This document shows positions 62,386-63,659 of a stretch of DNA of 64,000 nt, one piece after another. Positions within the stretch are counted from its first letter, which is position 1, and each line of letters starts with the position of its first letter. Both the position numbers and the translations under genes were made by a program. The stretch lies in NCBI GenBank assembly GCA_045598525.1, contig JAZLMH010000006.1, positions 2,375-66,374 of the forward strand, written 5' to 3'. Source of the stretch: Bacilli bacterium (lineage in GTDB: Bacteria; Bacillota_I; Bacilli_A; RFN20; CAG-826). The notes under the pieces were generated by a model. That model saw only the letters and a list, made by a program, of their open reading frames with translations. It had not been told where the DNA came from and searched no databases.

Positions 62386-62442
62386 GGTTTATCTAGAGAG
62401 AGCCCGCCACCCCCATAAGATGGCAGGCCGCCCTCCGGTGCC

Positions 62443-62470
62443 TTGCTTCGGCGTCAGATCATGATATAAT
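62443..62470 (+). promoter_or_regulatory. promoter-like boxes facing the shared terminator (unit 1)
   Basis: TTGCTT-N16-TATAAT, 16 nt upstream of the terminator stem. Confidence 0.4.
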
Positions 62471-62486
62471 AAGCTTGTGGTTATAA

Positions 62487-62516
62487 GAAGTAGGCATGCC
62501 TACTTCTTTTTCTTTT
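62487..62516. terminator. bidirectional terminator, unit 1
   Basis: GAAGTAGG-catg-CCTACTTC plus TTTTTCTTTT. The peptide stop codon lies in the stem. Confidence 0.6.
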
Positions 62517-62574
62517 CCGCAAACCTAAGAAGTATCAGATAGACCAGTATCAGGATTATTGTCGTCTCCGACAT
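62500..62574 (-). CDS. 24-aa hydrophobic Lys-tailed peptide, A-type
   Basis: MSETTIILILVYLILLRFAEKKKK*. GAAGGGG SD-like sequence 4 nt upstream. Confidence 0.5.
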   Translation of the reverse strand: MSETTIILILVYLILLRFAEKKKK

Positions 62575-62626
62575 GAAACCCCTTCGCCGCAAGCAAGGAG
62601 GGAAGGGAAGAAAGAACCTTGTTCAT
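62525..62626 (-). CDS. 33-codon overlapping ORF (unit 1)
   Basis: GGAGGGGAtcctATG gives MNKVLSSLPSLLAAKGFHVGDDNNPDTGLSDTS*. Confidence 0.3.
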   Translation of the reverse strand: MNKVLSSLPSLLAAKGFHVGDDNNPDTGLSDTS

Positions 62627-62756
62627 AGGATCCCCTCCATATACTTATAGAGGGGGATTTCGAAAAATTACGAAAAAAGTTCAAAATTTCCGAAAGTTTT
62701 ACAATTCATTTGAGAGAGCCCGCCACCTGTCACCTGGCAGGCAGCCTTCCACCGCC

Positions 62757-62785
62757 TTGCCAAGGCCGTCGTCTTATGCTATTAT
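62757..62785 (+). promoter_or_regulatory. promoter-like boxes facing the shared terminator (unit 2)
   Basis: TTGCCA-N17-TATTAT, 13 nt upstream of the terminator stem. Confidence 0.4.
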
Positions 62786-62798
62786 ATTCTTAGTTTGG

Positions 62799-62830
62799 GA
62801 GGTAGGTTCGCACCTACTTCTTTTTGTTTT
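62799..62830. terminator. bidirectional terminator, unit 2
   Basis: GAGGTAGGT-tcgc-ACCTACTTC plus TTTTTGTTTT. Confidence 0.6.
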
Positions 62831-62888
62831 CCCTGACACTAAGAATCATCAATAAAATCACCGTAAGGATGATAATGATGCTTTCCAT
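62814..62888 (-). CDS. 24-aa hydrophobic Lys-tailed peptide, B-type
   Basis: MESIIIILTVILLMILSVRENKKK*. Confidence 0.5.
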   Translation of the reverse strand: MESIIIILTVILLMILSVRENKKK

Positions 62889-62940
62889 AAAACTTCTTGG
62901 CCAATGGCGAGAGTGGGAAGGAAGAAAGGATCACTCTCAT
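62839..62940 (-). CDS. 33-codon overlapping ORF (unit 2)
   Basis: GGAGGGGAttatATG gives MRVILSSFPLSPLAKKFYGKHHYHPYGDFIDDS*. Confidence 0.3.
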   Translation of the reverse strand: MRVILSSFPLSPLAKKFYGKHHYHPYGDFIDDS

Positions 62941-63070
62941 ATAATCCCCTCCGTATACATATAGAGGGGAATTTCGAAAAACGACGAAAAAAGTTCAAAA
63001 TTTCCGAAAGTATCAGAATCCATTTGAGAGAGCCCGCCACCTGTCACCTGGCAGGCAGCCTCCCCGATTC

Positions 63071-63098
63071 TTGCCACGGCGGTTATCTATGCTATAAT
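63071..63098 (+). promoter_or_regulatory. promoter-like boxes (unit 3)
   Basis: TTGCCA-N16-TATAAT. Confidence 0.4.
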
Positions 63099-63108
63099 AA
63101 AATTGCTT

Positions 63109-63204
63109 TTAGAATTTGAAGTGGGCGAACTCACTTCTTTTTTTATCCGCAATCTTAAGTAGTATTAGATAGACCAAAAGAAGGATTATGGTCGTCTCCG
63201 ACAT
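63109..63204 (-). CDS. 31-aa A-type peptide variant with an altered tail
   Basis: MSETTIILLLVYLILLKIADKKRSEFAHFKF*. The tail differs from unit 1 in a way consistent with a 1-nt change in the A-run. Confidence 0.4.
   Translation of the reverse strand: MSETTIILLLVYLILLKIADKKRSEFAHFKF
63118..63145. terminator. bidirectional terminator, unit 3
   Basis: GAAGTG(G)-gcgaac-(T)CACTTC plus TTTTTTTT. Confidence 0.5.
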
Positions 63205-63256
63205 AAAACCTCTTCGCCAACGGCAAGAACGGAGAGGCAGAAAGGATTACTCTCAT
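63155..63256 (-). CDS. 33-codon overlapping ORF (unit 3)
   Basis: MRVILSASPFLPLAKRFYVGDDHNPSFGLSNTT*. The SD here is the weaker GGAAGGGAA. Confidence 0.25.
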   Translation of the reverse strand: MRVILSASPFLPLAKRFYVGDDHNPSFGLSNTT

Positions 63257-63367
63257 GATTTCCCTTCCATATACATATAGAGAGAGGACATTAAAAATTC
63301 ATGAAAGTTTTGTAATTAATTTGAGAGAGCCCGCCACCTGTCACCTGGCGGGCAACCTTCCACCACC

Positions 63368-63396
63368 TTGCCAAGGCCGTCATCTTATGCTATTAT
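63368..63396 (+). promoter_or_regulatory. promoter-like boxes (unit 4)
   Basis: TTGCCA-N17-TATTAT. Confidence 0.4.
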
Positions 63397-63410
63397 CTTC
63401 TCAGTATCGG

Positions 63411-63442
63411 GAGGTAGGTTCGCACCTACTTCTTTTTATTTT
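63411..63442. terminator. bidirectional terminator, unit 4
   Basis: GAGGTAGGT-tcgc-ACCTACTTC plus TTTTTATTTT. Confidence 0.6.
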
Positions 63443-63500
63443 CCCTGACACTAAGAATCATCAGCAAAATCACCGTATGGATGATAATGATGCTTTCCAT
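63426..63500 (-). CDS. 24-aa hydrophobic Lys-tailed peptide, B-type
   Basis: MESIIIIHTVILLMILSVRENKKK*. Confidence 0.5.
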   Translation of the reverse strand: MESIIIIHTVILLMILSVRENKKK

Positions 63501-63552
63501 AAAACTTCTTGGCCGAAGGCAAGGCTAGAAAGGAAGAAAGGATCACTCTCAT
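63451..63552 (-). CDS. 33-codon overlapping ORF (unit 4)
   Basis: MRVILSSFLALPSAKKFYGKHHYHPYGDFADDS*. Confidence 0.3.
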   Translation of the reverse strand: MRVILSSFLALPSAKKFYGKHHYHPYGDFADDS

Positions 63553-63659
63553 ATAATCCCCTCCATATACATATAGAGGGGAATTTCGAAAAATGACGAA
63601 AAAAGTTCAAAATTTGAATTTTTTTGAGAATAAAAGTTTATTTCTTTTATAATGTGCTT

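Follow-up and report, generated by a model that had tools for sequence, protein, structure and literature searches.

A tandem array of short repeat units

We analysed a 64,000-nucleotide (nt) stretch of contig JAZLMH010000006.1 from a Bacilli bacterium assembly (GCA_045598525.1), hereafter called the window, which harbours short repeat units that resemble type I toxin-antitoxin modules. Each unit carries on its minus strand an open reading frame (ORF) for a tiny hydrophobic peptide, and a predicted antisense RNA gene faces it from the plus strand. Four head-to-tail units of 297-316 nt (n = 4) occupy positions 62394-63625, as delimited by MAFFT alignment and nhmmer, the latter giving E-values of 1e-79 to 1e-96. 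At 62623-63615 the Tandem Repeats Finder (TRF) program detected a tandem repeat, its period being 314 nt and its copy number 3.2. The array runs in the order A (U2), B (U3), A (U4), B (U5), which confirms the A-B-A-B arrangement of four ~300-nt modules that an earlier reading of this DNA, made from its letters alone (the sequence-only reading), had placed there. Two more copies lie at the window's other end: U1 (574-880), which is complete, and U0 (440-573), which is partial. The units are as follows.

62394-62709, minus strand: unit U2, A-type, complete module (nhmmer E 1.5e-89)
62710-63023, minus strand: unit U3, B-type, complete module (nhmmer E 4.3e-96)
63024-63320, minus strand: unit U4, A-type, probably degenerate (alignment)
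63321-63625, minus strand: unit U5, B-type (alignment and nhmmer)
574-880, minus strand: unit U1, B-type, solitary complete module downstream of the FNT transporter gene (alignment and nhmmer)
440-573, plus strand: U0, orphan antisense module with promoter TTGCTT-N17-TGtTATTCT at 475-503 and terminator at 519-550 (nhmmer E 2.6e-16)

The B copies U3 and U5 are 94% identical, and the A copies U2 and U4 only 73%. The changes in U4 comprise a 1-nt deletion in the Lys tail, a weakened 5′ hairpin and the loss of 19 nt upstream of that hairpin. U0 is 90% identical to U1 and retains only the last few codons of the putative toxin. The motif GAGAGCCCGCCACC has one exact match in each array unit (n = 4), against a chance expectation of 0.12, and U1 carries a variant with two mismatches.

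Read along the minus strand, a unit begins with an AT-rich stretch and a 5′ hairpin, CCCCUC...GGAGGGG, the 3′ arm of which is a strong Shine-Dalgarno sequence (SD). The ATG of a 33-codon ORF, the leader ORF, follows 6-7 nt after this SD and is succeeded by the CU-rich stretch CCUUUCUUCCUUCCC and by a weak, variable SD. Next comes the ATG of the hydrophobic ORF of 22-24 amino acids (aa), located 52 nt past the leader ATG and in another frame, and then a hairpin that encloses its stop codon. The unit closes with a 3′ untranslated region (UTR) of ~100 nt, a GC-rich hairpin, GCCNGCCA...UGGCGGGC, and UCUCUC. Long plus-strand ORFs (46-113 aa) that span the units are not kept open from copy to copy and were treated as spurious.

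Selection on the hydrophobic peptide

The toxin-like ORFs of the five complete units are listed below.

62500-62574, minus strand: toxin-like ORF of U2, 24 aa, MSETTIILILVYLILLRFAEKKKK
62814-62888, minus strand: toxin-like ORF of U3, 24 aa, MESIIIILTVILLMILSVRENKKK
63109-63204, minus strand: variant ORF of U4, 31 aa, MSETTIILLLVYLILLKIADKKRSEFAHFKF, with a frameshifted tail
63426-63500, minus strand: toxin-like ORF of U5, 24 aa, MESIIIIHTVILLMILSVRENKKK
680-754, minus strand: toxin-like ORF of U1, 24 aa, MEEIIIVLTMILLMILSVRENKKK

The peptides are 22-24 aa long, with a core of mean Kyte-Doolittle hydropathy 2.9-3.7 and a tail of the form (E/D/N)KKK(K). The sequence-only reading had assigned 24-aa Lys-tailed peptides to the whole array; this holds for three of its four units (U2, U3 and U5) and fails for U4, where the deletion yields a 31-aa product ending in KKRSEFAHFKF. 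The homologous units available to us number eight, from four assemblies (the window plus the relatives L002, L022 and L028) that belong to one narrow clade and are kin by descent, and the peptide ORF is intact in all of them. Among the relatives, the L002 unit (2511-2790) encodes MTEIIAILLLIYLILVRLEKKK, the L028 unit (1440-1715) encodes MSEATVILLLVYLILLRLADKKKK, and the L022 unit (986-1248) encodes a peptide identical to that of U1, with one synonymous change.

Nei-Gojobori counts from within-type comparisons over the first 19 codons, a small sample, gave a ratio of nonsynonymous to synonymous change (pN/pS) of 0.27 for the hydrophobic frame; the overlapping 33-codon frame had a value of 1.39, and the third frame one of 0.58. 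Substitutions in the hydrophobic frame are nearly all exchanges within I, L, V, M, T and A. Between U1 and U3 there are three amino-acid differences in the peptide frame and six in the overlapping frame, a recount that agrees with the figures of the sequence-only reading, and its choice of the hydrophobic frame as the coding one is upheld by the three ratios. In the stretch that could code for the leader alone, pN/pS was 0.66-0.75 in all three frames, and a second frame is also open there. Because the low ratio is specific to the hydrophobic frame and the leader-only stretch displays no such signal, these counts point to the hydrophobic peptide as the selected product of the unit, under purifying selection. 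Published searches for type I toxins have looked for peptides of 16-70 aa in which 10 or more of 15 residues are hydrophobic (I, V, L, F, C, M or A) and the C-terminus is polar or charged, encoded by tandem copies in an intergenic region (PMC2887945), and the peptides described here agree with that profile in size, hydrophobic stretch, charged tail and tandem occurrence within one intergenic region.

Short, Lys-tailed peptides encoded in tandem could also be exported effectors, either leaderless bacteriocin-like peptides or cytolysins resembling the phenol-soluble modulins (PSMs). The PSM-alpha genes, for example, are a tandem set encoding peptides of ~20 aa. The core of the present peptides is, however, uniformly hydrophobic (mean hydropathy ~3) and not amphipathic. 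There are no adjacent transporter, immunity or regulator genes, the neighbours being DUF6198, VanZ, AraC-type, YggS and FNT genes, and the combination of a translation lock in every copy with a facing promoter, described below, is an arrangement not known for such operons. We regard an exported effector as extremely unlikely.

A predicted lock in the peptide-strand RNA

The structural elements of the minus-strand RNA are given for U3, with their equivalents in the other units.

62946-62969, minus strand: 5′ hairpin of U3 with the strong SD, CCCCUC...GGAGGGG (helix 1)
62632-62656 (U2), 63262-63286 (U4), 63558-63581 (U5) and 812-835 (U1), minus strand: equivalents of the 5′ hairpin
62886-62921, minus strand: 5′ arm of the long-distance pairing of U3, comprising the CU-rich stretch, the weak SD and the toxin AUG, within the leader ORF (helices 3-5)
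62745-62778, minus strand: 3′ arm of the long-distance pairing of U3, in the 3′ UTR, complement of the antisense −35 box and spacer
62718-62742, minus strand: GC-rich 3′ hairpin of U3, GCCUGCCA...UGGCGGGC then UCUCUC (helix 8, 100% paired)
62402-62428 (U2), 63032-63056 (U4), 63329-63353 (U5) and 582-608 (U1), minus strand: equivalents of the GC-rich 3′ hairpin

Single-unit folds gave z-scores of −5.1 and −5.3, and the consensus structure of six units contains the 5′ hairpin, the 3′ GC hairpin and a long-distance pairing of alignment columns 56-91 with columns 203-236. In this consensus, 91.8% of cells are paired, as opposed to ~45-51% when the partners are slid along each other. Compensatory changes occur in 17 of the 61 consensus pairs, compared with 3-6 in the slid controls, and none of 500 shuffles reached 17. 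The long-distance helices 3-5 are 90-97% paired and account for 11 of the pairs with compensatory changes. In L002, both arms are wholly different in sequence and their complementarity is kept.

The peptide strand out-folds the plus strand by 5-21 kcal/mol in 6/6 units (Alifold −58.5 vs −38.8 kcal/mol), and the non-Watson-Crick pairs of the consensus comprise 44 G-U vs 9 A-C. The preference for minus-strand folding and the excess of G-U pairs indicate that the structured molecule is the peptide-strand RNA, reaching through the 3′ UTR. The model of this RNA has a conserved, covarying 5′-3′ lock in which the peptide's AUG and its weak SD are buried. Since the ~100 nt beyond the stop-codon hairpin pair with the 5′ UTR, the toxin transcript must continue through them, and the GC-rich 3′ hairpin, which is without a proper U-tract, is likely to form either the 3′ end of the modelled mRNA or a stabiliser of it.

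The conserved CU-rich motif CCUUUCUUCCUUCCC and the strength of the structure would also suit multicopy non-coding RNA genes or repeat elements, such as CU-rich siblings of the LhrC/csRNA kind that bind the SDs of their targets, with the small ORFs being incidental. Sibling small RNAs of Firmicutes often stand in tandem, and a weak csRNA match was obtained at 809-903 (E 3.8, far under the gathering score). This explanation must contend with a pN/pS of 0.27 that is specific to the hydrophobic frame and arises mostly from I/L/V/M exchanges, and with an ATG, a length of 22-24 aa and a Lys tail common to the A and B types despite only ~50% identity between them. Moreover, the CU-rich motif is paired within the molecule and not placed in a loop, and no Rfam family, the antitoxin RNAs such as Sib, RatA, SR4-type, Sok, RNAII and SprA1as included, reached its gathering threshold in the region, the best sub-threshold match being SIB_RNA (20.4 bits vs 56, E 0.36). 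A purely non-coding role appears very unlikely to us.

The leader ORF

Each complete unit of the window has a leader ORF upstream of, and overlapping, the peptide ORF.

62525-62626, minus strand: leader ORF of U2, 33 codons, after GGAGGGG, 52 nt before the toxin ATG and in another frame
62839-62940, minus strand: leader ORF of U3, 33 codons
63155-63256, minus strand: leader ORF of U4, 33 codons
63451-63552, minus strand: leader ORF of U5, 33 codons
705-806, minus strand: leader ORF of U1, 33 codons

The position (−52 nt offset), length and SD of the leader ORF are constant in 8/8 units and also in five database peptides given below. The sequence-only reading had passed over this ORF. It owns the unit's only strong SD, with anti-SD binding energies of −9.8 to −12.7 kcal/mol in every unit, as against −2.0 to −8.7 kcal/mol for the peptide ORF. 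Gene callers annotate the leader ORF alone and never the 22-24-aa peptide, and public gene calls yield five 33-aa leader peptides (P0149, P0150, P0153, P0154 and P0155). P0149 and P0150 come from a single NCBI contig of 31 kb, which means that an A-like and a B-like unit occur together in at least one relative's genome. A HMMER scan of 1.84 billion representatives with the leader ORF recovered only two true 33-aa relatives, and a doubled-sequence alignment used as the protein query had no match at E <= 10.

Three database variants of the U2 leader peptide differ from it by D>N, T>P, G>R and H>Y. In the leader frame, all four changes appear to fall on first codon positions; three of them (D>N, T>P and G>R) would also be at wobble positions of the peptide frame, and H>Y would lie one base before the peptide ATG.

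A facing promoter and a predicted antisense RNA

Across the 3′ UTR region, the plus strand reads TTGC(C/T)(A/T), 16-17 nt, (TGn)TATnnT. From the −10 box, 15-24 poorly conserved bases lead to the complement of the stop-codon hairpin, which is followed by a T-run on the plus strand. The predicted genes are as follows.

62443-62513, plus strand: predicted antisense RNA gene of U2, with TTGCTT-N16-TGaTATAAT at 62443-62470 and terminator stem at 62485-62508 plus U-run
62757-62832, plus strand: predicted antisense RNA gene of U3, with TTGCCA-N17-TGcTATTAT at 62757-62785 and terminator at 62797-62822 plus U-run
63071-63146, plus strand: predicted antisense RNA gene of U4, with TTGCCA-N16-TGcTATAAT (11/12 consensus match) and terminator at 63118-63137 plus U-run
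63368-63444, plus strand: predicted antisense RNA gene of U5, with TTGCCA-N17-TGcTATTAT and terminator at 63409-63434 plus U-run
623-696, plus strand: predicted antisense RNA gene of U1, with TTGCTT-N17-TGcTATGAT at 623-651 and terminator at 665-686 plus U-run

A strict sigma-70 scan accepts three of the array promoters, each with a TG extension, and the remaining copies were read from the alignment; together these support the promoter TTGC(C/T)(A/T)-N16-17-TATnnT that had been proposed for all six copies in the window. Over nine copies, the −10 box reads TAT(G/A/T/A/T/T/A/A/G)(A/A/A/A/A/C/C/A/A)T, and it lies outside every predicted mRNA helix. No change is seen at its positions 1-3 and 6, while positions 4-5 vary freely; a working sigma-A −10 box shows this pattern.

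The array has four terminator-like sites on the plus strand vs 1.4 expected from shuffles, and the stop-codon hairpin folds with z-scores of −2.8 to −4.4. The terminator's G-U pairs work on the plus strand only, and no U-run follows the hairpin on the peptide strand. Hence the hairpin is not the terminator of the mRNA, and the antisense gene is nested inside the mRNA. The sequence-only reading had envisaged a stop codon embedded in a strong hairpin with a U-run, serving as a bidirectional terminator shared by both RNAs in the manner of par/fst. The hairpin stands and the U-run is present on the plus strand alone; the shared terminator is not borne out, with the modelled mRNA extending past the hairpin.

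The predicted antisense RNA would measure ~36-41 nt as modelled (~35-50 nt given the uncertainty of its 3′ end). A short unconserved 5′ tail and the terminator hairpin would make up this RNA, which would cover the last ~5 codons and the stop. Its duplex energies with the 5′ region of the toxin were no better than those of shuffles, and a par-like second pairing site in that region was rejected. Without such complementarity, any antisense action must take place at the stop-codon hairpin and the adjacent 3′ UTR. A longer antisense RNA starting from a TACAAT box upstream of the GC hairpin was discarded as well: the box is unconserved (TACAAT, CAGAAT, TGTAAT) and absent before U1, U2 and the L002 unit.

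The loops of the stop-codon hairpin read GCAC in U0 and U1, CAUG in U2, UUCG in U3 and U5, and CGAA in U4, and the stems also differ between types. These differences could give each type its own partner, and U0 could act on U1.

Gain and decay of units among relatives

The closest named relatives of the flanking proteins are from metagenome-assembled genomes (MAGs) labelled 'Bacilli bacterium', at ~54% identity, and the contig sets searched did not include the window's own species. The gap between DUF6198 and yggS contains four units in the window, at least one in L027 (an 89% relative), a 5′-hairpin remnant only in L002 (91%), and no unit but a 36-nt spacer in L003 (80%). The copy number at this site is therefore 0 to 4 among close relatives. 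Orthologues of DUF6198 (89%) and of the FNT gene (93%) are present in assembly GCA_024500545.1. Downstream of yggS, L002 has a full unit and an orphan antisense module. Downstream of the FNT gene, both the window and L022 have a B unit. L028 has an A unit there, and L023 a remnant with the last codons and terminator only, where the contig ends. In the ~82% relatives L025 and L026, the same site is occupied by a helix-turn-helix nucleotidyltransferase MNT/HepT toxin-antitoxin pair (L025 1987-2851, L026 1233-1998).

The antisense part was kept and the 5′ part of the toxin lost in three independent remnants, namely U0, L002 2830-2915 and the L023 contig end. Decay in this direction would be expected if losing only the antitoxin did harm. 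A counter-example to this pattern is L022, in which the toxin, the −10 box and the terminator are intact and other parts of the unit are replaced, as described below; this change may be very recent, since the copy is ~97% identical to U1 elsewhere.

Several further observations concern these sites. Addiction modules appear to have a hot spot downstream of the FNT gene. A Fic/DOC-domain protein gene (window 1620-2576, plus strand) adjoins the FNT gene and U1, and Fic genes flank the relatives' loci too (L018, L025). The MNT/HepT pair of L025 and L026 is preceded by the AT-rich upstream stretch and 5′ hairpin of the units. The units' AT-rich stretch with ATTGTAAA(A/T)(C/T)TTT, and the SD-sequestering hairpin and ATG that follow it, are not confined to the units and recur at window 42157-42260 (minus strand), L025 1888-1990 and L002 1740-1797. 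At the first of these places they precede an ordinary 252-aa gene (nhmmer E 7e-5), and at the last the stretch and hairpin are a remnant between DUF6198 and yggS.

The peptide may instead be a genuine non-toxic small membrane protein, regulatory or stress-related, that is made from a throttled mRNA, with the plus-strand elements mainly terminating or insulating the neighbouring plus-strand genes and yielding no functional antitoxin. Selection and RNA structure show a tightly controlled peptide, not toxicity, and at every locus the first plus-strand terminator lies ~80-115 nt past the end of a plus-strand gene (DUF6198 at 62385, an ORF at 438, yggS in L002). The weak NCBIfam similarities of the peptides, with E-values of 0.04-0.08 and well below cut-offs, are only to small membrane protein families. 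Such a protein would not, however, be expected to leave the marks seen here: heterotypic tandem copies, variation between 0 and 4 copies and repeated loss of the peptide with the antisense part kept are typical of addiction modules. Furthermore, the internal units U3-U5 have their own promoter and terminator with no plus-strand gene ahead, and the conservation pattern of the −10 box is that of a working promoter. We consider this alternative unlikely.

Searches for known families

The peptides matched no Pfam family at E <= 10 and no NCBIfam family above its cut-offs. In the same hidden Markov model (HMM) scan, the controls Fst, PepA1, LdrD and BsrG matched Fst_toxin, Ldr_toxin and Hol_Tox. 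For the Fst/Ldr superfamily (PF13955, PF13940), the peptides had no match at E <= 10 and contain no Pro, Gly or Trp; the signature of that superfamily includes a conserved Trp that comes behind the helix and ahead of charged residues (PMC2887945) and a PxxxG(C) motif in the helix (PMC8309996). Neither the TxpA/BsrG-type Hol-Tox family (PF16935), for which the BsrG control scored E 1.8e-8, nor the Hok_Gef family of Pfam was matched by the peptides. With the Rfam result given above, and with known toxins scoring as controls, these scans agree with the sequence-only reading, which did not recognise the peptides as members of any named family.

The peptide strings did not occur in the literature searched, exact look-ups of the window's proteins returned no identical entry, and blastn of two units against plasmids and phages gave no match. 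A scan of genome contigs with the pattern GGNAGAAAGNANNNNNNTCATNNNNTCCCNTCC, which is too specific and misses even the L002 unit, had one match, an ordinary gene start in a Lentisphaeraceae MAG. The pattern GCCACCN{6,10}TGGCNGGN{68,82}ACTTCTTTTT gave 12 matches in metagenome contigs, all in unrelated coding or GC-rich sequence, and pattern scans of IMG/VR viral contigs gave 0, 0 and 3 matches, those three being chance occurrences inside genes.

A candidate type I toxin-antitoxin module

Based on these findings, we propose that each ~300-nt unit is probably a type-I-like toxin-antitoxin module, as judged from its sequence and that of its relatives. The units would form a probable new family of a known kind, type I toxin-antitoxin systems, that belongs to none of the named families.

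A possible mode of action can be outlined. The full-length mRNA would be inert in translation, as described for the hok and aapA mRNAs (PMC6733600, PMC4147584). The lock might be opened by 3′ trimming, by ribosomes translating the leader ORF, or by both; as codons 7-18 of the leader ORF form the lock's 5′ arm, this ORF would act like mok. The plus strand would make a short antisense RNA that is a perfect complement of the stretch from the last ~5 codons through the stop-codon hairpin into the adjoining 3′ UTR. Kissing of the hairpin loops would lead to a duplex and to a cut by RNase III that removes the stop codon and the protective 3′ structures, comparable to txpA/RatA and bsrG/SR4. The peptide would insert into the membrane, leaving its Lys tail on the cytoplasmic side, and would presumably damage the membrane if in excess. 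The specific scheme of leader coupling and 3′-end targeting is tentative, and we think it rather unlikely to hold as drawn.

Several points weigh against this interpretation or some part of it. A scan found no sigma-A consensus promoter for the toxin strand. Conservation of the antisense −35 box and spacer is not independent evidence for a promoter, because both form the lock's 3′ arm. The predicted antisense RNA is shorter than characterised type I antitoxins, which measure ~55-220 nt. The leader ORF appears to be without amino-acid selection, and its conservation may be incidental. Because the units are related by descent, the shuffle statistics overstate significance. Finally, the toxin ORF of L022 is intact while unrelated DNA has taken the place of its 3′ arm, GC hairpin and −35 box, so either the lock is dispensable or this copy is a very recent truncation.

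Two observations stand beside these points. Several toxin-strand promoter candidates picked by eye (for example TTTATA-N16-TATCAT in U1 and TTACAA-N16-TAATGT in U4) are not conserved across units and were set aside. The replacement in L022 (1229-1310) consists of unrelated AT-rich DNA with a different neighbour gene, and the FNT gene of L022 is 99% identical to that of the window.

If the toxin-antitoxin interpretation is correct, the units would represent a new family from an uncultured Bacilli lineage that combines an mRNA lock of Gram-negative style with the 3′ antisense layout of Gram-positive systems. Its toxin and its antitoxin would both be unusually small. A module as compact as ~300 nt would be a convenient model for the interplay of mRNA folding, leader translation and antisense pairing, and possibly a small kill-switch part. 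The remnants and copy-number variants offer a natural series for the gain and decay of modules. Ordinary annotation cannot find type I toxin-antitoxin systems, and T1TAdb has only 24 type I families on record (PMC8594479).

Other features of the window

Two RNAs above the Rfam gathering score are encoded elsewhere in the window: a full-length ROOL RNA (10873-11406, plus strand, 196 bits) and a COG3943 RNA (5030-5136, plus strand, 93.5 bits), both of them large or orphan structured RNAs of unknown function. Other repeats lie at 45886-48273, 48454-50462, 50601-53994 and 35480-37357. They include a 795-aa ORF with internal repeats of 606 nt, paralogous genes in tandem that encode ~295 aa (sharing 86% identity over 293 nt) and ~550 aa, and internal ~120-nt repeats in the 625-aa ORF at 35480-37357.

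Comparison with characterised systems

The ibs/sib, ldr/rdl and zor/orz systems of E. coli are likewise tandem genes for tiny hydrophobic toxins, gathered in one intergenic region with a strain-variable copy number (PMC2887945). Their peptides and RNAs are unrelated to those described here, and the geometry of antisense RNA and mRNA is another one. The par system of Enterococcus faecalis plasmid pAD1 (fst RNA I/RNA II) is also from a Firmicute, and has convergent RNAs that meet at a terminator hairpin and a sequestered toxin SD, as predicted here (PMC4147584). It differs in its bidirectional terminator and DRa/DRb complementarity, where the present units have a U-run on the antisense side only and no second region was found. 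The Fst peptides display the Fst/Ldr signature, and the peptides of the window have neither this signature nor a match to PF13955.

In the txpA/RatA, bsrG/SR4, bsrE/SR5 and yonT/SR6 systems of Bacillus subtilis, the toxin is likewise a small hydrophobic peptide, and BsrG also ends in KKK. A convergent antisense RNA on the 3′ side overlaps the end of the ORF, as predicted here, and decay of the mRNA depends on RNase III, which is the action expected for the present units (PMC4147584). T1TAdb gives overlap on the 3′ side as the layout of Gram-positive families (PMC8594479), and this organisation (TxpA/RatA, BsrE-G-H, YonT, SprG/SprF) is matched here only as far as the sequence shows. The units are related to the B. 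subtilis systems neither in sequence nor by HMM. The toxins of those systems are 38-59 aa long vs 22-24 aa here; their antisense RNAs measure 100-220 nt and overlap the 3′ end only, whereas those predicted here measure ~36-41 nt and are fully nested in the mRNA.

The hok/sok/mok system of plasmid R1 and the aapA/IsoA systems of Helicobacter are Gram-negative. Their antisense RNAs target the 5′ leader or the translation-initiation region, in contrast to the stop-codon end that would be targeted here, and Hok, with ~50 aa and a Pfam family of its own, differs from the present peptides. What they have in common with the units of the window is a full-length mRNA closed by pairing between its 3′ region and its initiation region, as predicted here; in hok and aapA this role is taken by the 5′-3′ long-distance interactions fbi and aSD3, respectively (PMC6733600, PMC4147584). 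In both, the antisense gene is nested within the mRNA, and mok, an overlapping leader ORF, has the good SD, the toxin ORF downstream of it having a poor one; the units here show a leader ORF of this layout and a predicted nested antisense gene. It is conceivable, if rather unlikely, that a Gram-positive lineage independently assembled a locked mRNA in the style of hok and aapA, in which a 5′-3′ lock and a mok-like unzipping leader ORF are combined with a ~40-nt hairpin antitoxin. On this view the peptides (22-24 aa) would be among the smallest toxins, paired with the smallest type I antitoxin RNA described, and the antitoxin would have a new point of attack: acting at the stop-codon hairpin, which activation by 3′ trimming would leave as the end of the mRNA, it would destroy the activated form only.

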